A DNA stretch of 64,000 nt from Candidatus Aminicenantes bacterium (GCA_963702005.1 OY969696.1:1024001-1088000), one strand, 5' to 3'; positions 1-10,774 are shown, counted from the stretch's first letter. Notes: generated from the sequence alone by a model not told the origin. Numbers and translations are program-made.

Positions 1-1
1 G

Positions 2-784
2 GCCTACCGCCTCGGCATCCTTAACGTCACTCAGGACCTCTGGAATCGGGGCGAAGTCGAGGTCGTTATCGAAGGCTCGGCGGCCAAGGGGAAGCCCGTC
101 AAGACGTTCAGCCAGAGGTTGGCCGACCTGCCCTTCCACCCGACGCTCAACGTCATCGGAGCCCTGCCGGCCCGGGATTTCGCGCCCGATTATTACGAGA
201 TGAAGTTCAGCCTGAAGGACGGCGGGGGGGCGGTCCTGGACACGGCCTCCCTGCCTTTCATCATCTCGAGCGAGATCGCGATTCCCCATCCGGTCACGTT
301 AAGCCGCTCCCTGCCGGCTGCCAACAACTTCTTGTATTTCTACGGGCTGGCCATCCAGTACGATAAGATCGGCGACCCGGCTCGGGCCGAAGCGGCCTAC
401 CGGAAGGCCCTCGAGCTGAAGCCGGATTATCCGGAGGGCCTGTCCGACTTCGCCGATTTCCTGTTCCGGTCCAATAAATTCGACGAGGCCCTTCGGGTCG
501 TCGAGCCGCTCAAGGACAACGACAAGTTCCGCTTCAATTATTTTCTGATCCGAGGCCGGGCCCTGCTGGAGAAGGGGGAATTCGGATCCGCCATCCAGAG
601 CCTTCTCGACGGCAACAGAATCTACAACAGCGACACCCGGCTCCTCAATGCCCTGGGGTATTGCTACTACAAGACGGGCCGCAAGAAAGAAGCCTTGGAC
701 GTCCTGGGCGCCTCGCTCCGCCTCAACCCCGAACAGGCGGACGTCAAGGCGCTCATCGGCACGATCGAAAAAGAGCTGAAGTAG
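2..784 (+). CDS. C-terminal part of a TPR-containing protein, probably a GWxTD-domain protein (5'-partial)
   Basis: Frame is open from base 2. Ig-like segment (DFAPDYYEMKFSLKD) is followed by TPRs (AEAAYRKALELKPDY, LNALGYCYYKTG). The Ig-like part resembles the C-terminus of the GWxTD ORF at 15357-16937. Confidence 0.7.
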   Translation, partial: AYRLGILNVTQDLWNRGEVEVVIEGSAAKGKPVKTFSQRLADLPFHPTLNVIGALPARDFAPDYYEMKFSLKDGGGAVLDTASLPFIISSEIAIPHPVTLSRSLPAANNFLYFYGLAIQYDKIGDPARAEAAYRKALELKPDYPEGLSDFADFLFRSNKFDEALRVVEPLKDNDKFRFNYFLIRGRALLEKGEFGSAIQSLLDGNRIYNSDTRLLNALGYCYYKTGRKKEALDVLGASLRLNPEQADVKALIGTIEKELK

Positions 785-817
785 CCGGGAATCCCGGCGG
801 CCTTGACATCGTGGCTT

Positions 818-1438
818 TCAAAAACCACGGCTTTTAGTTGTTATTTTTTTAAAAAACCTTTTAGGGATAAATCTCGGGACTTGACGGCAGTATTCTTCAT
901 ACTCTTTCCCGAAGCGCTGATGAAGTTCCCGTTCCTCTAAAATCACCACAATAAAAAAAAGAGGTATTGAAAGAACAAACATCAAGTAGGCGGCCGGATA
1001 ATTGGCAAGCAGAGTATAGCCCAGGGTGAACAGGCTGGCTTCTACATAGCGGGGGTGCCGGATCCATGCATAGGGGCCGCCGGAGAGCAATTCCCCCGGG
1101 TATTTTTTTTGGGAAAGTTCGGGATTGCCGGCGAGTAAACCAAAAGTCAGGTATTGGCGGCGTTTTTTACTAATGTAAATGGCCGCTCCCATACAAACCA
1201 GCCCTAAGCTAATCGGAATAATATTTGTTCCGAGATCTTTTGCCAAAATTGATTTCCGGTATAGATATATTCCTCCCATCCAGACTAGCGAGGGGATGCT
1301 GAGTATGCCATAGGTCAAGGCAATACCCAAACGGCGCCAAAAAGAGGCCAGGGGATGAATAAATATCCATAAAAACAAGGCCACCGGATAGCTCATTAAA
1401 ACCATCATGGCTATGACATATCTGATTGTATTGATCAT
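818..1438 (-). CDS. Isoprenylcysteine carboxyl methyltransferase / phospholipid methyltransferase (ICMT/PEMT) family membrane protein
   Basis: Several TM segments; motifs GPYAWIRHPRY and EERELHQRFGKEYEEYCRQVPRFIP. Visibly AT-rich compared with flanks. Confidence 0.85.
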   Translation of the reverse strand: MINTIRYVIAMMVLMSYPVALFLWIFIHPLASFWRRLGIALTYGILSIPSLVWMGGIYLYRKSILAKDLGTNIIPISLGLVCMGAAIYISKKRRQYLTFGLLAGNPELSQKKYPGELLSGGPYAWIRHPRYVEASLFTLGYTLLANYPAAYLMFVLSIPLFFIVVILEERELHQRFGKEYEEYCRQVPRFIPKRFFKKITTKSRGF

Positions 1439-1473
1439 TTTATCTCCAAAGGATAAATTATATTAAATTATAA

Positions 1474-1537
1474 GGTTCAGGTCTTGCATTACGATTTATT
1501 TGCAATTATAAAAAGCATGATAGCAAGACCAGCCCCC
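1474..1537. repeat. Degenerate REP-like palindrome (GGTCTTGC...GCAAGACC arms, AT-rich loop)
   Basis: Arms ggtcttgc (1480-1487) and gcaagacc (1523-1530), extended imperfectly by ggttca / agcccc. Confidence 0.5.
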
Positions 1538-1778
1538 ATTTGCCACGATGATATTCCGTTGGCGGCCTCATCAACATCACCTTGACGGATGCCGAGACGG
1601 GCGAAATGGGAGAGGGGGCCCTCTTTTTCAGAGAGCTTGGGGACGGTCGTTTAGTTTTTTAGAATTTTCTGAAGCCTGGTGAGGACTAAGACCAAGCCGG
1701 AGGCCGAGCGGGAGGGCAAGTACATGTTCCGGCCGGTCCGGGAGCTTTCGGCCCATTCCTACAAGGAGGATATCGAAC

Positions 1779-3083
1779 ATGCTGACACCAAGATCCGCCA
1801 CAAGATTGATTCTTCTCCTGACCATGATCCTTTGCTCGGGTCCACTCACAGCGGCGACTTACTACCTTTCTCCGGCCGGATCCGACTCAAACCCCGGCAC
1901 AGCGGTTAGCCCCTGGCGCACATTCCAGAAGGCGGCGTCAGCGGTCCGCGCCGGCGACACAGTGATTGTCCGCGATGGGACGTACACGGGCGGGGTGTCG
2001 ATCGAAACCCCGGGAACGGGCAGCAAGCCGATCGTGTTCAAGGCCGAGGGAAGTCATGCCGTCATTCAGGGGAGCGGCGGCGAGCGGGATGCCTTATATG
2101 TCGATGGATACTCCCTCGGGGACCCGTGGTGGAAGGGCGCGGACATGTACATTACGATCGAGGGGCTTACCATCCGGAACGCCACCCGGGGCGGCATTCG
2201 CATCTCTTGTGCGCACCACGTGACCGTGCGCAACTGCATTCTCACGCGGAACGGCACCTGGGGCATTTTCACCGATTACTCGAATTACTCACTCCTCCAG
2301 GACAATGAGTGCAGCTACTCCGGCGACGAGCACGGAATCTACGTGAGCAACAGCAGCGACTTCCCGATCATCCGCGGAAACCGCGTCCACCACAACTCAT
2401 CATCGGGGATCCAGATCAACGCGGATCCAGCGATGGAGGATGGCGACGGAATCACGACCGGCGCGGTGATCGAGCGGAACATCGTCTATGAAAACGGCCG
2501 CCGCGGCGGCTCGGCCATCAACCTGGCATCCGTCCGGAGCTCGTTCGTGCAGAACAACCTCCTCTACGACAATTATGCCGGCGGGATCGCCTGCTGGGCA
2601 GATGGCAACGGGCCGGCGTGGGGGTGTAAGAACAACCGGATCTATAACAACACGGTGTTCTTCAGGAGTACCCGGGGCCGCTGGACGATTTCCCTCAAGG
2701 AAGGCAGCAGCGGCAATCAGATCCGCAACAACATCCTCTGTGGCGGCCGTGACGGAGTTCTCGAGTTCGACGACTCGCAGTCGACCAAGGGCCTCAAGAT
2801 GGATTACAACCTCTTCTACCGGGCCGGGTCGAACCTTGTTGTCACATGGGAGGATGAGGCCGATTACACGCTCGACGAGTGGCAAGTCCAGTATCATCAG
2901 GACGCGCATTCGATTTCAGCGGCGCCCGCTTCCGTCTTCGTGAACATGGGCAAGGCCAACTTCCACCTCAAGAGCGGTTCCCCATGTATCAACGCCGGTG
3001 ACCCGGCCAAGAAGTTCAACGATCCGGACGGCACGCGTAACGACATGGGAGCGTACGGCGGACCCAAGGCTCTGGCGCGATGA
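1779..3083 (+). CDS. Secreted right-handed parallel beta-helix protein (pectate lyase-like, DUF1565-type N-terminus)
   Basis: Signal peptide, ATYYLSPAGSDSNPGT..PWRT, Asn-ladder repeats, C-terminal FHLKSGSPCINAG..DMGAYGG. RBS aggagg. Confidence 0.85.
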   Translation: MLTPRSATRLILLLTMILCSGPLTAATYYLSPAGSDSNPGTAVSPWRTFQKAASAVRAGDTVIVRDGTYTGGVSIETPGTGSKPIVFKAEGSHAVIQGSGGERDALYVDGYSLGDPWWKGADMYITIEGLTIRNATRGGIRISCAHHVTVRNCILTRNGTWGIFTDYSNYSLLQDNECSYSGDEHGIYVSNSSDFPIIRGNRVHHNSSSGIQINADPAMEDGDGITTGAVIERNIVYENGRRGGSAINLASVRSSFVQNNLLYDNYAGGIACWADGNGPAWGCKNNRIYNNTVFFRSTRGRWTISLKEGSSGNQIRNNILCGGRDGVLEFDDSQSTKGLKMDYNLFYRAGSNLVVTWEDEADYTLDEWQVQYHQDAHSISAAPASVFVNMGKANFHLKSGSPCINAGDPAKKFNDPDGTRNDMGAYGGPKALAR

Positions 3084-3230
3084 TCGCCCGTGCGCGCCTG
3101 CACCGACCGCATGGGTCATCGTGAGGGCGCGCGTTCGACCGCCGAGACCGTGGGTCGGATCAGCGGCCACCTGAAGCTACAGTTCGCGGCGGCGAAGCCG
3201 CCGCTCTTGCGTGTCCTCGAGCAGGTCGCG

Positions 3231-3320
3231 CTCGCGGCGGCCGGTACCGATCGCTTAGTCTAAGAAGCGAATTCTTCAAGGGCGGATTTCCGGTTTTCGG
3301 AAGTCCGCCCTTTTTCTTTT
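3231..3320 (+). repeat. Repeat copy R1: RRM-gene 3' end plus intrinsic terminator
   Basis: cgcggcggccggtaccgatcgcttagtctaagaagcgaattcttcaagggcggatttcc..ggaagtccgccctttttctttt; same sequence recurs at ~4712, ~8601 and ~10654. Confidence 0.85.
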
Positions 3321-3390
3321 TAATGGGGGGGGCAGTCCTTAATGGCTTATGCAGGGAAACGAATGTTGGCATAAGCGCCTATCCACGAGC

Positions 3391-3430
3391 TTGCCCTACA
3401 TTTATCCGCAGTGCTTATTTTGTAGGGTAA
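3391..3430. repeat. Palindromic site TTGCCCTACA-N20-TGTAGGGTAA immediately downstream of the nucleotidyltransferase gene
   Basis: Near-identical arms to the site at 4437-4477; lies 1 bp from the stop codon at 3432-3434. Confidence 0.75.
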
Positions 3431-3431
3431 T

Positions 3432-4427
3432 TTACCGCAATAAGGCCTGCAGCCGTCGGATGACGCCCTGCTCAAGCGGCATGATATCCTCGGCTTTTGC
3501 CAGCGATCGCCTTATCTGGGCCTTCCATTTTCCCCGCAAGCCGCCCCAGAGACCCGACAATCGGGTTGTTTCAGATTTTTCGGCTAATACGTATTTCCCG
3601 GCATAAATCCCCTGCCGGATGTCCTTTTCCCTTTTGTTCCAGCGCTCCGGACGCGCGGCGATGAACAACTTATGCAGAAGGAAGGCTGACGGGCTGGGCA
3701 CCTTAGCACGTATCCCTCTGCCCAATTTCAAGATTATGGGATCGGCAAAGAGGATATCGAGGAACCTCAATTCCTGCGGAGTGAGGGCGATCTCCTTAAT
3801 GTGCCGAGGGGGGAGAGTGCCGTTTTTCCGCTCCCGAGATACGAACTCGACTTTCATTCTGTTCCCCGTGAAAAACATGGAACCGTCCGGGTTGAAATGC
3901 TGGCTGAACCCCAGACGCTGCAAAAACTCGCTGAGGTTAAAGGCTCGACCCTTGAACGGCCGGGGCACCAGAATATCCAGGTCATCTGTTTTCAGCGGGT
4001 ACTTTTCCATCGGCAGGTGCTTTTGATAGAGAAGAAAACACCAGCTGCCGATGATTTCGAATCCGGCATCCCATAATTTCTGCTCGGTCAGGGTACGGAA
4101 GATCTCGAGCAGGGGGTCTGCGAGATCGAGCTCTCCTCCTCGAACCGACCTGAGGAGCCGCAATCCTTCGCGGACACGGGGTAGTTCCCTCTCCAGGCGA
4201 TCCCTTTCAGCCAGGCTGTCGCGCAGCTCGCGAGGCACCTCTTTGCCGATGTAGTCGGTTTTCACCGAGCGGCCCTTTCGATACTGAAGATAGCAATAAA
4301 CTTCGCCGCCGATCTTCTTCGATCGAATGCGGCCCTTGGGCAGCAGAGCCAGCCGCGCGGAAATCTTCCTTTCCTGTTCCCGATAGAAGTCCGCGTTCTC
4401 GCTGAGCGTTTCCTTGAGGTCTTTCAT
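3432..4427 (-). CDS. Nucleotidyltransferase-fold protein (GSU2403-like) with basic N-terminal domain
   Basis: IIGSW...KTDDLDIL (G-S/DxD NTase motif), AFLLHKLFIA..R....KREKD. N-terminal KGRIRSKKIGGEVYCYLQYRKG segment followed by a coiled coil. Confidence 0.75.
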   Translation of the reverse strand: MKDLKETLSENADFYREQERKISARLALLPKGRIRSKKIGGEVYCYLQYRKGRSVKTDYIGKEVPRELRDSLAERDRLERELPRVREGLRLLRSVRGGELDLADPLLEIFRTLTEQKLWDAGFEIIGSWCFLLYQKHLPMEKYPLKTDDLDILVPRPFKGRAFNLSEFLQRLGFSQHFNPDGSMFFTGNRMKVEFVSRERKNGTLPPRHIKEIALTPQELRFLDILFADPIILKLGRGIRAKVPSPSAFLLHKLFIAARPERWNKREKDIRQGIYAGKYVLAEKSETTRLSGLWGGLRGKWKAQIRRSLAKAEDIMPLEQGVIRRLQALLR

Positions 4428-4433
4428 GAGGGC

Positions 4434-4477
4434 ATCTTACCCTACATTTATGATGTTGTCAATAATATGTAGGGTAA
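4434..4477 (-). promoter_or_regulatory. Sigma70 promoter (TTGACA-17-TAAGAT), probably leaderless, overlapped by palindrome TTACCCTACA-N21-TGTAGGGTAA
   Basis: On the minus strand, -35 at 4462-4457 and -10 at 4439-4434; the ATG at 4427 is 6 nt after the -10 with no SD. Inverted repeat spans 4437-4477. Confidence 0.7.
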
Positions 4478-4519
4478 TGGGTAATCCTTTCATGCGGATG
4501 GCCGAGAAGGGAGGTGAGT

Positions 4520-4732
4520 ATGAATATCGGGTGATCATAAGCGGGGAGGCGGTGCTCTCAAGGTCGCCTCCGCGCTCAACGGCAAGGACCTCAAAGGCCG
4601 GAACCTGAAGGTCAACGAGGCCCAGGCCCGGACCTACCGGCCCCGCACGGCCGCTTCGGCCTGTACTCATGAGCCCGTGCTAACGGCTCCATGAGTGCGG
4701 GCGGGTTCGGCGGCCGCAGCGGCCGGTACCGA
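4520..4732 (+). pseudogene. Internally deleted RRM (RNP-1) RNA-binding protein gene
   Basis: RBS ggaggtg plus ATG AAT ATC (MNI start typical of bacterial RRM proteins). From 4572 the frame reads ALNGKDLKGRNLKVNEAQARTYRPR; after a hairpin insertion it reads GGFGGRSGRY. Stop appears as CGA here and TGA in copy R3. Confidence 0.75.
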
Positions 4733-4744
4733 TCGCTTAGTCAA

Positions 4745-5065
4745 CCCCTCGACACCCATACTAAGCCGAGAACGGCTTAGTATGAGTGCTGCAAGGCTAC
4801 TCCCCGGCCGAAGCTCCACGGCCTAATGCTCGTTGGAGCGCCAGTACTCATGAACCGTTTCCGGTTCGTGAGTGTATGAATGCCGGGGCTTGTTCGGGGC
4901 TGAAGCTCCACAGACTTTCACGTGGAGCTTCTGCCCTGAGCCCACTCAGCTCCATTCCTTCTAAAAGGGCTGAGTGCAAAAGTGTCGCTTCTCGTCCCCG
5001 CCTTGAAAGGCGGGGCTCCGATTTTAAGCCCCGCCTATCAGGGCGGGGTAGCGTCGGCGAACGGG
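4745..5065. mobile_element. Non-autonomous nested multi-hairpin insertion flanked by TCAA direct repeats, splitting repeat copy R2
   Basis: Removing 4745-5065 and one TCAA restores gcttagtcaagaagcgaa, as in R1 and R3. Contains at least six hairpins and no credible ORF. Confidence 0.7.
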
Positions 5066-5126
5066 TCAAGAAGCGAATTTACCAAGAGCGGATTTCCCGG
5101 GATGGGAAGTCCGCCCTTTATTTTTT
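5066..5126 (+). terminator. Distal half of repeat copy R2 (terminator hairpin)
   Basis: tcaagaagcgaatttaccaagagcggatttcccgggatgggaagtccgccctttatttttt. Confidence 0.75.
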
Positions 5127-5423
5127 AAACGTCGATATCCGGTCACTCTCCGGCTGGGGGCGAAACCCGGCAGCGGGAAGGTTCATGATGAATCGGTTCA
5201 GGGTTTGCCCGTAAGGGCTGTCGATGCTTTTTCGTCTTGACAGTCTCATTCGTCATAAATTACTATAATAATCAGGGGATAAGGGAAGAATCAAAGCGAT
5301 GCGGCGGTTTCCGTCGTCGGAAAAAAAAGTTATTTTCGTTTCCCCTTGGGGAGCGCCCGACAGGGCTTTCTAAACTTCGCGCAGCTTAAGGGGCGGCCAT
5401 CCCCTTGAGTGAAGGAGGGTATT

Positions 5424-5720
5424 ATGAAATTGGCTCTTCTGATCCTTTTTTGGGGTTTCTCCGGCTGGCTTGTCTGTTTTATTCTTAAGACGGATCCTCC
5501 CTGTCCCAAACTCCGGATCTGTTTTCTCCACTTCGTTACGGGGGTGGGCGGAGGCCTGCTGTATTATTATGCGTTTGCGCTGAAAGAGAGCTTCACGGGC
5601 ATCGACTTTCTCGCCTCCTCCTATGCGGCTTTTATTGCCTCCCTTTTCTTGGCCACTTTCGTGTGGTGCCCGAAGTTGATCGCACGCGGGAAACCCGAGA
5701 TCGATCAAAAAAGGAAATAA
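5424..5720 (+). CDS. Small three-TM membrane protein of unknown function
   Basis: RBS aaggaggg before ATG 5424, three hydrophobic segments, upstream TTGACA (5238) promoter-like element. Confidence 0.65.
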   Translation: MKLALLILFWGFSGWLVCFILKTDPPCPKLRICFLHFVTGVGGGLLYYYAFALKESFTGIDFLASSYAAFIASLFLATFVWCPKLIARGKPEIDQKRK

Positions 5721-5784
5721 AAAAAAGGCCGATTCAGAAGACGTCCCCGGCTTTTAGGGTGAGGTCTGAGAACCGGCGGTCTCA

Positions 5785-8496
5785 ATGAGTCTCGTCGGAA
5801 AAACGATCGGCCGTATCCGGATCCTGGATATCCTCGGCCAAGGCGGGATGGGAGAGGTTTATGTCGCCTTCGACGAAGTCCTCAAAAGGAAAGTGGCCGT
5901 CAAGGCGATTGGCGCGGGGATTCGGCTCGACCCGCGGGCCAAGGCGCGTTTCCTGAGAGAAGCCCGCGCCCTCTCGCAGCTCGAGGATCCTCACATCTGC
6001 CGGATCCACGATTATATCGACGGCGTCGAGAACGATTTTCTCATCCTTGAGTTCATCGAGGGGAAGACGCTCGCTCGAGCCATGCGGGAAGGGCTGACAA
6101 AGTCCCAGAAGGTCAGAATCGCCGAGCAGATCGCTCAGGTTCTCGCCCTCGCTCACGGGAAGGGCGTCGTTCATCGCGATCTCAAGCCCGCCAACATCAT
6201 GCTTGTCCAAGGCGATCAGGTCAAGGTCCTCGATTTCGGTCTGGCCAGCTTCGTCAAATCGCAGGCGCAGACGCCGGGGCCGTTGATGGAGGAGGGCGTT
6301 TATAAAGCGAGGCCGGGCGATCTTGAGGAGGAAAAGCTTGGGGACTTGACGCTTACCCTTTCCTCATCTCCCGCCGCAGCCGAGATAGCCCCATCCGTTT
6401 CCGGGCTTTCCCCGGCCTCCTTCGAGACCGGGCACGGGATGATTATGGGCACCCTCCTCTATATGAGCCCGGAGCAGGCGCGCGGAGAGGACGTCGGCCC
6501 GTCGAGCGATATGTACTCTTTCGGCCTCCTCCTCCAGGAACTCTTCACCGGGCGGCCGCCCTATGAACAGACGTTGGACGAGGCCTTGCTTCTGGGCAGG
6601 GTCGCCAAGGCGGAGACAAACCCTGTCTCCGGCCTGAGCGGAGACCTGACGAAACTTATCAACCAGCTCAAATCGCTGGCCCCGGCCGCCCGGCCGACGG
6701 CCCTGGAAGCCGCCGATCGTCTCGAGGAAATCCGGGAAAAGCCGGCCCGCAGGATTCGCGCCGTCGTTATCGCCGCCATCCTGATCACCTTCCTGGCGAT
6801 GGGATTGAAGTATGTCCTGGACCTGCGGCGCGAGCGAAGCCTCGCCCTTCAGGCCCGTGATGAGGCGACAAGCGTCGTCGAATTCCTGGTGAACCTCTTC
6901 CAAGTCTCGGATCCCGGCGAAGCCCGGGGGAATACGATTACCGCGCGAGAAATCCTCAGCAAGGGCGCCCAGGAAATCAGCCAGGGCCTCGAACGGCAGC
7001 CCCTAACCCGGGCCAGGTTGATGGAGACGATCGGAAGCGTCTACCAAAAACTGGGACTTTACCGAGATGCCGAGCCTCTCCTCGGCAGAGCCCTTCAAAT
7101 CCGCCAGCAGCTTCTCGGCCCGAAAGATCCGCTGGTTGCGGAGAGCCTCAACAGCCTGGCCGGGCTTTATGAACTCCTGGGCAGACTCCCGGAAGCCGAA
7201 GCCCTTTGCCAGAAGAGCTTGACCATTCGCACGTCGGCCCTGCCTTCCGACCATCCCGCGATAGCCGAGAGCTTGAACCTCCTCGCCCGGATCCATTACC
7301 AAAATGGGAAGTTCAAAGACGCGGATTCCCTTTTTCATCAGGCCCTTGCTATCCGCGAAAAGGCGCTGGGACCGAATCACCCCGCCGTCGCCGAAAGCCT
7401 GACCGACCTGGGGCGCCTGTATTACACGGAGAGCAGGTTTGACGATGCGGAAAAGTGTTATCAAAGAGCCCTCGTCATCAAGGAAACGATTTTGGGGGCG
7501 GACCACCCGGACGTCGGGCAGGGCCTCAATAGCCTGGCCGGGCTCTACCTCTGGCTGCGCCGCTACGCGGACGCTGAACCCCTCTACAAGAGAGCCCTGG
7601 CCATCCGGGAAAAAACCCTGGGCCCCGTCCATCCGGACGTGGCTGTCTGTCTTTTCAACCTCGGCATCCTTTATCACTACCAGAAAAAATGGCCCGAGGC
7701 GGAAAAATTCTACCGGCAGGCTCTTGATATTCAGAAAAAAGCCCTCGGGGAATTCCACCCCGATGTGGCCGACACCTATGAGGCTCTGGCTCAGGTTTTC
7801 CATGAGTCGGGAAAATACAAGGATGCCGAGCCTTTCTATCAGCACGCTCTGGCCATCAATGAAAAGACCGCGGGCCAGGATCACCCCCAGCTGAGTCATT
7901 GCCTGAACAACCTCGGGATCCTCTACACCGACTTGGGCAAATTCTCAGAAGCGGAGTCCGTGCTCTTGAGGTCCCTGAGAATTCAAGAAAAGGCCTGGGG
8001 GATCGAGAATTCGCGGCTAGCCAGGACCCTGGAACATCTGGGCGATCTCTACAGCAAGAGCCGAAAGCCGGATGCCGCGACGGCCGCTTACGGTCGTGCT
8101 CTTGCCGTCGTGGAGAAAGAATACGGCCCAGAACATTCGGAATTGGCGGCCCCCCTGATCGGCCTCGGCTCCGCCTTGGCAGAGCAGGGGCGCTTGGAAG
8201 AAGCGGAAAAAAACCTGCTTCGGGCGCTGGCCATAGGAGAAAAGAACGCCGACCTCGACAGGGAGGTCTTCGCCGATGGTCTCTTCGTGTTGGCGAAGTT
8301 CTACCACAGGAAACTCGTTCGCCCCAAGCAAGCCGAACAATTCTACAAGCGGGCATTGGAGGTTCAAGAGAAAGCGACCGGAGCGGGCTCCAAGGAGGTG
8401 AAGAGCATCATCGCTCCGTACGCTGAGCTCCTCCGGAGCCTGGGACGAGCGAAAGAGGCCGAGAAAATCGAAGTCCGGAGGAAAGGAACTCCGTAA
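5785..8496 (+). CDS. Hanks-type Ser/Thr protein kinase - TM - TPR (kinesin-light-chain-like repeats)
   Basis: GQGGMG, VAVK, HRDLKPAN, DFG and YMSPE motifs; one TM helix; about 11 repeats of ~42 aa of the type AESLNxLA..Y...G...AE....RAL.IREK.LGP.HP. Confidence 0.93.
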   Translation: MSLVGKTIGRIRILDILGQGGMGEVYVAFDEVLKRKVAVKAIGAGIRLDPRAKARFLREARALSQLEDPHICRIHDYIDGVENDFLILEFIEGKTLARAMREGLTKSQKVRIAEQIAQVLALAHGKGVVHRDLKPANIMLVQGDQVKVLDFGLASFVKSQAQTPGPLMEEGVYKARPGDLEEEKLGDLTLTLSSSPAAAEIAPSVSGLSPASFETGHGMIMGTLLYMSPEQARGEDVGPSSDMYSFGLLLQELFTGRPPYEQTLDEALLLGRVAKAETNPVSGLSGDLTKLINQLKSLAPAARPTALEAADRLEEIREKPARRIRAVVIAAILITFLAMGLKYVLDLRRERSLALQARDEATSVVEFLVNLFQVSDPGEARGNTITAREILSKGAQEISQGLERQPLTRARLMETIGSVYQKLGLYRDAEPLLGRALQIRQQLLGPKDPLVAESLNSLAGLYELLGRLPEAEALCQKSLTIRTSALPSDHPAIAESLNLLARIHYQNGKFKDADSLFHQALAIREKALGPNHPAVAESLTDLGRLYYTESRFDDAEKCYQRALVIKETILGADHPDVGQGLNSLAGLYLWLRRYADAEPLYKRALAIREKTLGPVHPDVAVCLFNLGILYHYQKKWPEAEKFYRQALDIQKKALGEFHPDVADTYEALAQVFHESGKYKDAEPFYQHALAINEKTAGQDHPQLSHCLNNLGILYTDLGKFSEAESVLLRSLRIQEKAWGIENSRLARTLEHLGDLYSKSRKPDAATAAYGRALAVVEKEYGPEHSELAAPLIGLGSALAEQGRLEEAEKNLLRALAIGEKNADLDREVFADGLFVLAKFYHRKLVRPKQAEQFYKRALEVQEKATGAGSKEVKSIIAPYAELLRSLGRAKEAEKIEVRRKGTP

Positions 8497-8600
8497 TTCC
8501 GGGGCTTCGCTCTTCGCTCTGTGGACATAGCGCGAGGAACCCATTCGGCTTGCGTCCCAGCCCAGCGCCATTCTGTCGCCTTTCTTGACCTCGCGCGGCG

Positions 8601-8678
8601 GGCGCGGCGGCCGGTACTGATCGCTTAGTTAAGAAGCGAATTTTCAAAGGGCGGATTTCCTGGGATGGGAAGTTCGCC
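8601..8678 (+). repeat. Repeat copy R3: RRM-gene 3' end (GGRY-stop intact) plus partly decayed terminator
   Basis: ggcgcggcggccggtactgatcgcttagttaagaagcgaattttcaaagggcggatttcctgggatgggaagttcgcc. Confidence 0.85.
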
Positions 8679-8740
8679 AGGCTGACGAACTTGATATCCT
8701 CCAGGCAATCGAGTTATCCTCTGTTCAAAAGGAGGGATTT

Positions 8741-9520
8741 ATGAAACACAACAAGCCGTTGGCCTCGATCTTGGGGCTCATCGTTATCCTCGGCGTCTTG
8801 CCCGCCGCTATTCGTTCCCAGGAAGCTCAGCCGCAGCTCTATCTCGCGGGCGATTTCCTGGCCGACACCTCTCGAGTCGGCGAATATGAGGCGGCCCTCA
8901 AGGAACTCCTGGCCAACCTGGAAAAGCACGGCTTCCCCTTTCGCCTCGATATCTACAGTACGCACGACAGCCATTATTACCTGGTCTTTCCATTAAAAAA
9001 CTATGCTGACGCCGACCTGTGGATTAAGGCCTGGGGAGAGTTGGGGCGGAAGATGGGGCCGCAAAATCTGCAGGCGGTTCATGGCCGAATCGTCGCCTGC
9101 GAGATCGAACGCGTCTATCAGTTCTGGTATTACCGTCCCGATATCTCGTTTCTCCCGGAAAAGGAGCGCTTAGAAACGGAAGAAATCGGCTATACCACCT
9201 GGGATTTCGTCTGGGTCATCCCGGGGAAAGAGGCGGAATTCGAGGCCATCAACAAGGAGTGGATCGCCCTTAGCAAAGCCAAGAAGGCGCGGGATCCTTT
9301 CTTGACCTTTGTGGGCGACCTGGGCACGAAGATGCCGGTTTATGTCTGGATGGAGTACGGTAAAAGCGCCGCGGATTATGCCGCCGCGGAAGAAATTTTC
9401 TGGAAGGGGATGGGGGAGGAGGGCGCCGCGCTGTCGAAGAGGACCCGGGCCCTTATCAGGAAAATGGAGTCGAAAACCGGACGGTATCGGCCCGACCTCT
9501 CCTATGCCCCGAAGAAATAG
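8741..9520 (+). CDS. Secreted protein with two NIPSNAP-like / dimeric alpha-beta barrel repeats
   Basis: Signal peptide; two similar halves ending YYRPDISF and RYRPDLSY; PGKEAEFE motif. RBS aggaggg. Confidence 0.6.
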   Translation: MKHNKPLASILGLIVILGVLPAAIRSQEAQPQLYLAGDFLADTSRVGEYEAALKELLANLEKHGFPFRLDIYSTHDSHYYLVFPLKNYADADLWIKAWGELGRKMGPQNLQAVHGRIVACEIERVYQFWYYRPDISFLPEKERLETEEIGYTTWDFVWVIPGKEAEFEAINKEWIALSKAKKARDPFLTFVGDLGTKMPVYVWMEYGKSAADYAAAEEIFWKGMGEEGAALSKRTRALIRKMESKTGRYRPDLSYAPKK

Positions 9521-9534
9521 CCCATCCGGTCTTT

Positions 9535-10536
9535 CTACAGTCCGATGGCGATCCCCGCTTTCAGTTGAAAGCCGGAGATGTCCAGGAAAAACCTGGTTGT
9601 GCCTCCCCAGTAGGACCAGTAGGAAGCGTCGTAATTATTGCCCGCCATCAAACCATAGAGACGGCCCCAATCTCGATAGACATCGTACGGAACCTGCAAC
9701 CACAGCTTGTCGTCCCAATTTTCGGAGTGGACGATCGGTTCAGCGCCGGGGTTCCGAATTTCCGTTCGGAGGGTTCCGGGGCCCTTCAAATCGGAGGTGT
9801 GGCGGAAGGCGAAGCCGCCTTCGGCGAAGAGGCTGAGAAATTTCACCGGACGGATGCGGAGCCGGGCGCCTATCTCGCCGCAGATTCCGGTGTTACGGCC
9901 GGTCATATCCAAGATCGTTGTCGTTTCGTAGCGCCGGCCTTGGCTGTCGACGATGATATCGCGGCGTTCGAAGCTGGACCGGCACTCGGCGAACATCGGG
10001 CCGCCGCCGATGAACAGCTCGAACCGGAGCGCCGATAGAAAGTTCCATCCGAAGCGCGCCTGGAGTTCCGGAATCCAGCCCGAGGCCGAGAGTTGGAAGG
10101 AGGGGAGGCGGTATTCGGCGCCGCTCCCGTCGGGGGCGGTGACGACCATGCCGACGGTGGAACTGCGGTCGCCTTTCACGCGCTGAATCCCGAGCGACAA
10201 AGTGAGCGTTGGGGTGGCCTTGTAGGTGAGGCGGACGCCGAATGGGAGGACGCGGTCCAGGGACCGGATCCGGGAGTCGCCGGTCCGGGTCGTTGTCGCA
10301 TCCTTGCCGTAAATGAATTCGTATTTATCGATGGTGAAAAAATTCAGGTAGGATTCCTCGTACCGGGAGATGGTGTTGAGCTCTTTGGGATTGATTTTCG
10401 AGAATCCGCCGTAGATTTCCAGGCCGAAATTGGCGAAGCTGAACGGTAAGCCTTGTTCTTGGGCTTGGACGGGCTGCGGAAAAATGGCGATACAAGCGGC
10501 GAAGAGAGCGAATACGACCCCATATCTTGTTTTCAA
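9535..10536 (-). CDS. Outer-membrane beta-barrel protein (OmpA/OmpW-like with long loops)
   Basis: Signal peptide (VQA), amphipathic strands, C-terminal LDISGFQLKAGIAIGL; TTG start with aaggagg RBS. Similar to the barrel of 16968-18095. Confidence 0.7.
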   Translation of the reverse strand: MKTRYGVVFALFAACIAIFPQPVQAQEQGLPFSFANFGLEIYGGFSKINPKELNTISRYEESYLNFFTIDKYEFIYGKDATTTRTGDSRIRSLDRVLPFGVRLTYKATPTLTLSLGIQRVKGDRSSTVGMVVTAPDGSGAEYRLPSFQLSASGWIPELQARFGWNFLSALRFELFIGGGPMFAECRSSFERRDIIVDSQGRRYETTTILDMTGRNTGICGEIGARLRIRPVKFLSLFAEGGFAFRHTSDLKGPGTLRTEIRNPGAEPIVHSENWDDKLWLQVPYDVYRDWGRLYGLMAGNNYDASYWSYWGGTTRFFLDISGFQLKAGIAIGL

Positions 10537-10653
10537 GGCATCCTCCTTCTCGCTGTTTCCATGGTCGAGATGATGATATTTGGGATAACGGGGATAATCA
10601 TAATATCCAATTATAATACGTCGGAACGAAGAAAAATGTTACCCGGGCGGCGA

Positions 10654-10774
10654 GGCGCGGCGGCCGGTCCTGATTGCTCGCTCCTAGAACCGATTCTTCA
10701 ATCCCCTCGCGGGATCCCACGGACGTAAGTCCGTGGAGCTTCAGGGCGGATTTTCAATTTTGGGAAGTCCGCTC
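10654..10774 (+). repeat. Repeat copy R4 (most diverged) carrying a small hairpin insertion at 10701-10743
   Basis: ggcgcggcggccggtcctgattgctcg...ttcttcaa[tcccctcgcgggatcccacggacgtaagtccgtggagcttca]gggcggattttc..gggaagtccgctc. Confidence 0.7.

Follow-up and report, generated by a model that had tools for sequence, protein, structure and literature searches.

The window analysed here, a stretch of 64,000 nucleotides (OY969696.1:1024001-1088000, GCA_963702005.1) from the 4.31-Mb genome of a Candidatus Aminicenantes bacterium (G000), contains four copies of the 3' end of an RRM gene (R1, R2, R3 and R4), all of which lie on the + strand and are separated by blocks of other genes (Table 1). The four copies are real: a 23-mer core has three matches in the window at ≤3 mismatches against 0 expected (100 shuffles), and the terminator pattern matched 4/4 copies, again against 0 expected. 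Genome-wide (≤5 mismatches), 10/10 core matches are on the + strand and nine of these are confined to 975-1035 kb, and in 62 metagenome loci all 76 RRM matches share the strand of the unit, hence the copies are not scattered in random orientation, in line with the original prediction. Logan contigs that are independent of the assembly (records 3, 21, 25 and 26) span R1-NTase-R2a and kinase-R3-next gene, so that the four-copy arrangement is not an assembly artefact. The contents assigned earlier to the blocks held for the nucleotidyltransferase (NTase; NTP_transf_8) and the kinase (Pkinase+TPR), were met by a sub-threshold match only for NIPSNAP, and found no Pfam match for the presumed outer-membrane barrel, the 333-aa ORF at 9535-10536.

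Table 1. Features at the left end of the window (window coordinates).
Feature	Position	Strand	Remark
Right end of 52-kb segment (genome 975126-1027225), G000 only	1..3225	+	no orthologous DNA in congeners G001/G002
Beta-helix protein, last gene of 52-kb segment	1779-3083		Pfam Beta_helix
R1: last ~5 RRM codons, 3'UTR hairpin, intact intrinsic terminator; type II unit	3226..3323	+	
Nucleotidyltransferase gene, PF12281 (NTP_transf_8)	3432..4427	-	Pfam
Palindromes CCCTACA..TTGACA..TGTAGGG on both sides of NTase gene	3393-3430 and 4441-4478		
R2a: RRM pseudogene	4520..4742	+	aligns ref 252-415, 457-504
MITE, 325 nt, in loop of 3'UTR hairpin, between R2a and R2b	4743..5067	.	right end ..GCGTCGGCGAACGGGTC
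R2b: hairpin right arm, intact terminator	5068..5127	+	
Cargo block, kinase	5409..8496	+	small ORF and Ser/Thr kinase-TPR gene
Small ORF of kinase block	5409-5720		no Pfam match
Ser/Thr kinase-TPR gene	5785-8496	+	Pfam Pkinase+TPR
R3: RGGRGGRY-TGA, hairpin, terminator stem; T-run gone	8596..8677	+	
Cargo block, NIPSNAP-like gene and 333-aa ORF	8741..10536	.	Pfam
NIPSNAP-like gene	8741-9520	+	sub-threshold Pfam match, E 8e-4
333-aa ORF	9535-10536	-	no Pfam match
R4: diverged unit; genome-wide hairpin repeat inserted ~10697-10745; T-run gone	10649..10772	+	

The ~100-nt unit had been described as the RRM gene's last codons, 3'UTR hairpin and terminator, and this is borne out. Its hairpin is an imperfect palindrome, GATCGCTT-N8-AAGCGAAT; stem and T-run are retained in R1 and R2b, which pass a terminator scan, while the T-run is absent from R3 and R4. 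Fold z-scores are -3.9 for R1 and -6.0 for L001:10995-11125, which covers 3'UTR and unit behind the intact gene, and one layout, a GC-rich stem and T-run directly 3' of the stop codon, follows intact RRM genes in four families. Judged by these sequence features, the unit is a predicted intrinsic terminator and 3'UTR module of RRM genes. R2a, which is also found in G001 (89.5% identity), is the only one of the G000 fragments to have kept the start codon; its RBS and ATG are present, ~codons 4-54 are deleted internally, a 50-nt REP-like hairpin is inserted at ~4651-4700, and at its 3' end the last codons run into the left hairpin arm of the 3'UTR. The MITE that follows matches dozens of places in G000, and a 115-nt member occupies the identical site in G001 (contig C306). 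R4, the most diverged copy, is split by a hairpin repeat of ~50 nt that is present genome-wide.

The intact RRM gene, whose existence elsewhere had been anticipated, was located ~50 kb upstream of the window (genome 974629-974958), 220 nt downstream of 5S in the single rrn operon of the genome, and encodes 109 aa (RRM_1, E 1.7e-23). On its 3' side, 13 firm RRM fragments and a weak one extend over ~60 kb, every blastn match between 974 and 1035 kb has + orientation, and R1-R4 are the tail of this larger array. The blocks are reshuffled in relatives, and most of the junctions coincide with RRM units. The cargo blocks are up to 37 kb long with genes on both strands, NTase and TA genes among them, have a GC content of mostly 0.54-0.59 (one block 0.63; flanks 0.60), and show no paralogy from one block to another. 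The (5S)-RRM-terminator module sits after the rrn operon throughout the order, and rrn-5S-RRM synteny is also seen in complete genomes of two further families. Relatives carry two to four intact co-oriented RRM genes right behind 5S, and G001 has two near-identical 5S'-RRM copies, one of them internally deleted. Fragments also lie upstream of an intact copy in G001 and G025, hence "oldest farthest downstream" is no strict rule. The intact gene is 95.6% identical to that of G001 over nt 1-180 and 85.8% over nt 181-300, a weak mosaic signal that may reflect a 27-nt conversion tract shared with a paralog at 1122620.

In the congener G001 (contig C292), the order is 5S'-intact RRM-unit(R1)-NTase-R2, at 89.5% identity to genome 1027238-1028660, and R1 is orthologous to the unit at the end of that intact gene. 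The 52 kb between the intact gene and R1 in G000 are absent from G001, whose gene joins the R1 unit directly; a search of this segment against G001 and G002 returned only IS110, MITE, Y2-transposase and paralog-level (65-76%) matches, and orthologous DNA for the kinase block was not found in these two genomes. The metagenome loci L070 and L079 have the order RRM-unit-333-aa ORF-5S'-R2-unit-(genome 1012309-1012914 block), with the 333-aa ORF immediately after the unit of the intact gene, which in L070 is preceded by the rrn operon and 5S; L104 carries the portion from the 333-aa ORF onward. In G001 and G002 the 333-aa ORF precedes NIPSNAP, the reverse of the G000 order. The RRM gene is thus intact and its site either empty (G001) or filled with different cargo (L070/L079) in relatives, which is what the original prediction had envisaged. 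Already-dead fragments with common derived features recur at several places, and the second option of the original prediction, in which it is the 3' end that gets copied from place to place, fits this part of the data. The NTase gene occurs in 3/41 related genomes, always with an RRM unit on one side and an RRM pseudogene on the other, and in a GTDB scan RRM pieces adjoin three of six NTase loci; the block is patchy, yet it has RRM flanks in two families (74% aa identity). The metagenome loci are not independent and include several near-identical pairs; in the 30 of them with an intact gene, no fragment was found in 50.6 kb upstream, mostly rRNA operon or contig end, and 13 were found in 136 kb downstream. 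A contig of run X3 (record 19, 2181 nt, 95-98% identical) runs from 10578 through 118 nt to 5072, which is compatible with a circular form but not specific for one, and the X3 joint 4725 -> 8595 leaves out the kinase block; tandem duplication or a second strain could also account for the X3 joint. Neither a circular junction nor a crossover was directly seen in the contigs, to which this comparison was confined.

With its rearranged blocks and variable cargo, the RRM locus resembles a hotspot for gene capture in which no integrase is apparent. In the reading that we favour, with a probability of about 0.5, the repeated (5S-)RRM-terminator modules provide portable homology for RecA-type and illegitimate recombination, comparable to the "C-terminal displacement" of rhs loci; a dedicated attachment site is less likely. 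The 60-kb array would then consist of decaying (5S rRNA)-RRM gene-3'UTR hairpin-terminator modules, with R1-R4 at its distal end and the promoter-proximal copy as the only one kept intact. The route of recombination, its circular intermediates and the direction that events take are inferred: DNA would enter and blocks would move by ordinary recombination without a dedicated integrase, first through homologous crossover between RRM (or 5S) copies, which would include both single-crossover reinsertion of circles looped out between two copies and unequal or tandem duplication, and second through illegitimate joins concentrated in the GGC-rich RGG-tail codons. In every such event the intact gene would stay on the rrn side and the older copy or 3' end would be pushed downstream, as Jackson et al. 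proposed for rhs, redundant copies afterwards shedding 5' or internal parts. Fragments in G000 and the metagenome loci start anywhere between aa 10 and aa 99, 5S and 5'UTR sequence is part of several copies that also have internal deletions, one junction shows the microhomology GCCCTC and another a 5-nt overlap CCATC, and L059 is a plain tandem duplication of 1442 nt that starts at codon 21; these features point to homology-driven rather than site-specific events.

An unlikely alternative, though the most probable of three, is that ancestral tandem (5S-)RRM paralogs, such as many relatives retain, have passively eroded, so that the units are old gene ends without a role in cargo movement, and that IS, MITEs and horizontally acquired DNA landed in the spacers behind strong terminators. 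The relatives with several intact genes after 5S, the G001 pair and the simple duplication in L059 all agree with this, as does the genome 1012309-1012914 block, which lies behind differently eroded RRM copies in G000 and L070. Passive decay leaves unexplained, however, why block reordering is mostly unit-bounded, why copies that keep their 5' end are nearly absent from G000, and why the NTase block is patchy and RRM-flanked in two families; nor does it explain why some unit-only copies are 98-99% identical to intact-gene units on other contigs. Moreover, 14 copies call for much amplification, yet the cargo is without paralogy.

It is less probable still that the ~100-nt unit is a true recombination site for a recombinase encoded elsewhere, which would make the rrn-RRM locus an integron- or IMEX-like cassette array. 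The unit-only copies, which are young, begin sharply at the last codons, all within a short interval 3-13 nt ahead of CGGTAC, and such precision would be easier to reconcile with a specific site than with random homologous crossover. In three cases the unit begins 8-11 nt past the stop codon of an unrelated ORF, and 10/14 unit-only copies with an upstream ORF stand behind a co-oriented one. The genes of L070 and L093 are near-identical up to GATCGCTTAG, from which point terminator and downstream DNA differ; small inserts at the stop codon in G000 and G001 lie between two copies of a CCGGTACTGA-like motif; and the MITE in the same hairpin loop of two genomes as well as the contigs compatible with a circular form fit such a site too. 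Against it, neither Phage_integrase (PF00589) nor Resolvase (PF00239) was matched between 399 kb and 1510 kb, that is, within ~475 kb on either side, and no tyrosine or serine recombinase was found among 73 ORFs in 964-1040 kb or among 131 ORFs of 15/62 metagenome loci. The sole integron-integrase-like ORF (3940761-3941219) corresponds to a C-terminal half, scores below the cut-off (TIGR02249, 238.6 against 265 bits) and has no repeat array beside it at 3.94 Mb, and inspection of the four units revealed no attC core sites (RYYYAAC / GTTRRRY). The large blocks with genes on both strands, the many starts deep in the coding region and the copies with 5S also argue against a specific site. The original prediction is partly supported: the integrases that it proposed to look for next to the unit are found neither in the array nor in the ORFs of the scanned metagenome loci, and this, the scattered starts, the copies with 5S and 5'UTR sequence and the L059 duplication leave its tRNA-island-like attachment site for an integrase unsupported.

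The least probable of these alternatives holds that an IS91/ISCR-like rolling-circle element behind the RRM terminator reads through its upstream end and mobilises the RRM 3' end with its neighbours, after which the resident gene would recombine homologously with the product and so fix it, a route that has been proposed for ISCR1 and the 3'-CS duplication of complex class 1 integrons. The resulting topology, gene-IS-cargo-partial gene copy, resembles that of complex integrons (PMC8876359). A degenerate Y2 (HUH) transposase, in which N-terminal and HPHLH-type regions are recognisable, lies directly downstream of the intact gene's unit and co-oriented with it (genome ~975130-975724); in G001, a 5'-truncated copy (PF04986, E 4e-20) stands behind an RRM unit. 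L075 and L060/L105 have remnants 0.6-1 kb downstream of units, the L060 unit being within a 12-kb insert at a non-RRM locus. However, a remnant is present at 1/~14 G000 junctions, G000 has no intact transposase, and the 15 scanned metagenome loci gave no Pfam match to such a transposase. Nine further G001 copies were aligned, and wherever the sequence before the copy was displayed it held no RRM unit.

Several known systems share traits with this locus. When integrative islands insert in tandem at tRNA or tmRNA 3' ends, the target is regenerated and displaced partial 3' ends remain as co-oriented direct repeats. The RRM locus likewise has a regenerated target, direct repeats between blocks and content that varies among strains, but no integrase lies in or near its blocks, the repeats are heterogeneous in length and start (a common point, to within 3-13 nt, applies to the unit-only copies, the other fragments starting at aa 10-99), and some repeats comprise an entire gene together with the sequence before it. 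In integron cassette arrays, short structured repeats mark the 3' end of successive co-oriented units, the order of which varies between relatives; structured 3' repeats, varying block order and TA and nucleotidyltransferase cargo are found here as well, whereas no intI, attI, Pc or attC core adjoins the RRM array, the unit is a gene 3' end with terminator, and the cargo, which is often large, occupies both strands. Homology-facilitated illegitimate recombination and the "minimal mobile elements" of Neisseria use conserved sequence as anchor or arm, similar to the RRM locus, where the second join is at GC-rich microhomology. Such homology-anchored exchange usually leaves no ordered arrays of duplicated anchors, in contrast to what is seen here, and transformation is not known from this uncultured lineage. 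In complex class 1 integrons, ISCR1 (IS91-like) lies between partial 3'-CS duplications (PMC8876359). The RRM segment is similarly duplicated in part around captured genes, with an IS91-family remnant abutting the first copy; unlike ISCR1, however, the transposase is degenerate in G000 (5'-truncated in G001), occurs at one junction and is absent at the others, and there is no resistance-gene context.

A close parallel, and the proposal from which our favoured model is taken, is provided by rhs (and CDI) loci, for which Jackson et al. (2009; PMC2935791) describe arrays of dissociated C-terminal "tips" that arise by C-terminal displacement and propose homologous recombination with circular intermediates and no integrase. 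As in the rhs arrays, the RRM locus has the intact gene first, and behind it come co-oriented copies that lack 5' sequence but retain the 3' end and conserved core of variable length, with genes between them. Unlike in rhs, the gene codes for an RNA-binding protein of 109 aa next to the rrn operon instead of a polymorphic toxin, it is the cargo rather than the tip that varies since the displaced ends are nearly alike, copies may include the upstream 5S, and blocks reach tens of kb. An actual Rhs/YD or CdiA toxin-immunity array was rejected, as the gene is RRM_1 and the cargo is unrelated. By analogy, the RRM locus would thus work like an rhs-type array without being a member of that class.

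The locus is best read as a displacement array, or flexible island, whose seat is a housekeeping gene for an RNA-binding protein next to the rRNA operon. In this genome, a single 4.31-Mb contig in which the window occupies positions 1024001-1088000, the sole rrn operon (16S, two tRNAs, 23S and 5S) lies at 969254-974408, and an intact RRM gene (109 aa, RRM_1 E 1.7e-23) starts 220 nt past the 5S gene. The repeated unit, which had been read as the end of an RRM gene, corresponds to the last codons, small 3'UTR hairpin and terminator of this intact gene. A blastn search with the gene plus flanking sequence identified 13 firm partial RRM copies and a weak one between 986.6 and 1034.8 kb, all on the + strand; the last four firm copies are the units R1-R4 of the original prediction, which are all found in the sequence on the + strand, with R4 indeed the most divergent. 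The 23-nt core of the unit has three matches in the window at <=3 mismatches and the terminator pattern matches all four copies there, with no match of either in shuffled sequence. Genome-wide, all ten core matches are on the + strand and nine lie inside the 60 kb of the array, the tenth being at 4008078. Since the window has no Rfam match at the gathering threshold, the unit belongs to no known RNA family; what is repeated is the remains of a gene module (5S rRNA, RRM gene, 3'UTR hairpin and terminator), and neither a free-standing RNA family nor a product of chance.

Firm partial copies of the RRM gene (R1-R4 in window positions, the others in genome positions)
Copy	Position	Strand	Method	Remarks
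Partial RRM copy	986598-986960	+	blastn	
Partial RRM copy	987784-987830	+	blastn	
Partial RRM copy	989089-989315	+	blastn	
Partial RRM copy	990190-990309	+	blastn	
Partial RRM copy	1001988-1002044	+	blastn	
Partial RRM copy	1006710-1006787	+	blastn	
Partial RRM copy	1007847-1007934	+	blastn	
Partial RRM copy	1010804-1010877	+	blastn	
Partial RRM copy	1012094-1012362	+	blastn	
R1	3226-3323	+	blastn	
R2	RRM pseudogene 4520-4742; terminator half 5068-5127	+	blastn	halves split by a 325-nt MITE
R3	8596-8677	+	blastn	reads RGGRGGRY-TGA
R4	10649-10772	+	blastn	broken up by a genome-wide hairpin repeat

Two terminator types can be distinguished: type I is shared by the intact gene with those copies that lie no further than 1007 kb, and type II is found at R1-R4. 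The stem and T-run are kept in R1 and in the terminator half of R2 (R2b); the T-run is gone from R3 and R4, hence the idea that units are kept as terminators for upstream cargo genes is only partly tenable. The MITE in R2 (window 4743-5067; one end reads ..GCGTCGGCGAACGGGTC, the interior is hairpin-rich) matches dozens of sites in this genome on either strand, and a 115-nt relative occupies the identical RRM-unit site in the congener G001, while the insert in R4 (window ~10697-10745) is a short hairpin repeat (..GGATCCCACGGACGTAAGTCCGTGGAGCTTC..) with ~47 blastn matches elsewhere in the genome, again on either strand. A 38-nt REP-like hairpin (GTACTCATGAG..CTCCATGAGTGCGG) is present in the 5'UTR (974568-974605) and 3'UTR (975002-975039) of the intact gene at 95% identity, in the coding remnant of R2 (window 4660-4700) and elsewhere in the genome; the hairpin insert at the RRM stop codon of G001 is a different one, with a duplicated CCGGTACTGA on both sides. 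A 27-nt tract (GGGCCGCGCCCTCAAGGTCAACGAGGC) is identical in the intact gene (974830-974860) and a paralog at 1122620 (~1122820-1122850) and differs in G001 and locus L070, which suggests that gene conversion may have occurred between the two paralogs. A mosaic test of the intact gene gave a weak signal, confounded by the low-complexity tail and the conversion tract. The lone unit at 4008078-4008175 has minus-strand genes on its two sides, and its hairpin region is nearer to another family's RRM 3' ends (those of G019 and G025) than to the genome's own units. At 986460-986598 (L002:2460-2598), a protein-gene fragment, presumably resembling the N-terminus of adenylosuccinate lyase, runs straight into an RRM fragment at its codon 32, and an IS256 transposase fragment adjoins.

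Between the copies lie blocks of unrelated genes, among which Pfam agrees with the NTase and kinase-TPR genes as first named, gives a match below threshold for the NIPSNAP-like gene, and has no match for the ORF taken to be an OM barrel. The arrangements R1-NTase-R2a and kinase-R3-next gene are each spanned independently by contigs from public sequencing runs. Cargo proteins of different blocks show no paralogy, and segmental duplication of whole blocks in this genome was rejected, as its two kinase-TPR proteins share only 35% identity. The GC content of most blocks is 0.54-0.59, that of one block 0.63 and that of the flanks 0.60. The NTase block is found in three of 41 relatives and is RRM-flanked in two families (74% aa identity). 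This block supports the recombination model set out below, and its patchy yet RRM-flanked occurrence suggests that conserved modules may also provide the arms of homology through which lineages exchange DNA. Palindromes of the form CCCTACA..TGTAGGG are located on either side of the NTase gene (window 3393-3430 and 4441-4478), and the copy that precedes the start of the gene is a probable operator or promoter, since it contains TTGACA and is kept in all six NTase loci found among GTDB genomes. The NTase was rejected as an RRM-targeting mobile element, given this operator- or promoter-like palindrome and the three of six GTDB loci with no RRM piece within 4 kb.

Relatives present both an empty site and other cargo. 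Contig C292 of G001 has the order 5S'-intact RRM-unit-NTase-R2, with 89.5% identity to genome positions 1027238-1028660, and the R1 unit is therefore a genuine intact-gene end in G001, which is without the 52 kb that lie here between the intact RRM gene and R1. No DNA orthologous to the 52-kb segment or the kinase block was found in G001 (92% complete) or a second congener, G002 (83% complete), the matches being IS, MITE and paralog-level only. G001 has an array of its own with different cargo, namely genes for alpha-amylase-like, SpoIIE and M28 peptidase proteins, and 5S-like sequence is part of the copies there. A 333-aa ORF precedes the NIPSNAP gene in G001 and G002, while NIPSNAP comes first in this genome. 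Metagenome contigs L070 and L079 have the series RRM-unit-333-aa ORF-5S'-R2-unit followed by the block of genome 1012309-1012914; in L070 the rrn operon and 5S stand ahead of the whole series, and L104 carries the series from the 333-aa ORF on. In public run X3, a 2181-nt contig (95-98% identical) joins window position 10578 to 5072 via 118 nt, another joint connects 4725 to 8595 and bypasses the kinase block, and a third contig has the same order as this genome; a joint of 5070 to 10703 in run X5 was discounted, as both ends are in genome-wide repeats, and the reading of the runs is confined to the parts of the window that they cover with contigs. Most of the compared block junctions are at module copies. 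The locus is a hotspot where accessory DNA gathers and is reshuffled. The evidence backs the proposed capture at the RRM gene, and the initial observation is confirmed and much enlarged.

The same organization extends to metagenomes and other families. At 62 metagenome loci with the unit core, all 76 RRM matches are on the unit's strand, and the 30 among them where the gene is intact have no fragments in 50.6 kb upstream vs 13 in 136 kb downstream, several loci being near-duplicates and the sequence upstream of the gene mostly rRNA operon or contig end. Complete genomes from two further families also have the rrn-5S-RRM order, and as many as three RRM genes stand in tandem there; the layout of stop codon, hairpin and terminator 3' of intact RRM genes is common to four families. 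Extra 5S copies occur beside downstream RRM copies (L088, L103, L104 and L070). The rrn-5S-RRM synteny is kept across families of the order in L018, L023, L024, L088 and L103, and some contigs have, several kb downstream, another full-scoring 5S gene that adjoins an RRM fragment. A survey of breakpoints between unit pairs was set aside as evidence of mobility, as the right ends, mostly at +85 to +95, reflect mainly between-species conservation of the transcription unit.

The integrase originally invoked finds no support, as there is no recombinase in cis. Integrase or resolvase domains were absent between 399 kb and 1510 kb of the genome, a scan of 131 ORFs, taken from 15 of the 62 loci in metagenomes, gave no recombinase, and the transposase content of the array is limited to IS256 and IS110 fragments and one degenerate IS91-family Y2 transposase. 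Fragments begin at points spread over aa 10-99, some copies have internal deletions and include 5S and 5'UTR sequence, two junctions have microhomology, and L059 contains a clean 1442-nt tandem duplication beginning at codon 21. Together with the lack of a cis recombinase, these features favour ordinary recombination over a dedicated attachment site. In this topology an intact gene comes first, and the co-oriented fragments after it retain the 3' end, differ in the length of their conserved part and have other genes between them. From this we infer three steps: circles or duplications would arise between module copies, they would then insert either via crossover within homologous RRM or 5S sequence or through illegitimate joining in the GGC-rich tail, and the rrn-proximal copy would be retained while displaced copies decay.

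It is unlikely that the ~100-nt end of the RRM gene (last codons, imperfect palindrome and terminator) is instead a genuine recombination site served by an enzyme encoded elsewhere, in which case Aminicenantes would possess an integron-like cassette platform without IntI, with a housekeeping gene next to the rRNA operon as its anchor. In favour of such a site, unit-only copies begin 3-13 nt from one point, some being 98-99% identical to intact-gene units on other contigs, three units start 8-11 nt past the stop codon of an unrelated ORF, and L070 and L093 are near-identical as far as GATCGCTTAG, after which terminator and downstream DNA diverge. Two genomes have a MITE in the same hairpin loop, and this and the duplicated CCGGTACTGA-like motif on both sides of small stop-codon inserts point the same way. 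As for an integron integrase, the only candidate is an isolated ORF of 170 aa at 3.94 Mb (3940761-3941219; L123:6758-7270, - strand), which matches only the C-terminal half of TIGR02249 (238.6 bits, E 1.6e-70) and has no attC-like repeat array within 10 kb. The arrangement also recalls IS91-family capture, as with ISCR1, which according to PMC8876359 sits between duplicated 3'-CS copies in complex class 1 integrons, and here an IS91-family remnant adjoins the first unit; such capture may be considered given counterparts of the remnant in G001, L075 and L060/L105, but in this genome the remnant is at one junction only. The remnant, a degenerate Y2 (HUH) transposase, lies directly past the terminator of the intact RRM gene (~975130-975724; see also L016:12210-13068), and G001 has at least nine further copies of the family, this genome only fragments (another at 4152492-4153055). 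Pure decay of RRM paralogs accounts for the tandem intact copies in relatives, but leaves the reshuffled blocks unexplained. An RNA-mediated origin, considered because both edges of unit-only copies are sharp, was rejected, since several hold a conserved G-run past the T-run that would go untranscribed and the copies are clustered and co-oriented.

If the reading of the locus as a displacement array shaped by ordinary recombination holds, a highly conserved housekeeping module of 5S rRNA and RRM gene would supply the portable homology by which, throughout an entire order of uncultured bacteria, a flexible genomic island is assembled and reshuffled with no integrase involved. A practical marker of accessory DNA in Aminicenantes MAGs could then be had from stray RRM ends and additional 5S copies, and later genetic work could draw on the locus for naturally occurring homology arms and for an insertion site that is tolerated. 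No paper tying Aminicenantes to RRM genes and no relevant paper on rRNA-operon hotspots was found, supplements and subscription papers being outside the scope of the search. The logic of displacement arrays is known from rhs and CDI toxin loci, and would here be extended to ordinary genes, as the array is seated on a housekeeping gene rather than on a toxin.
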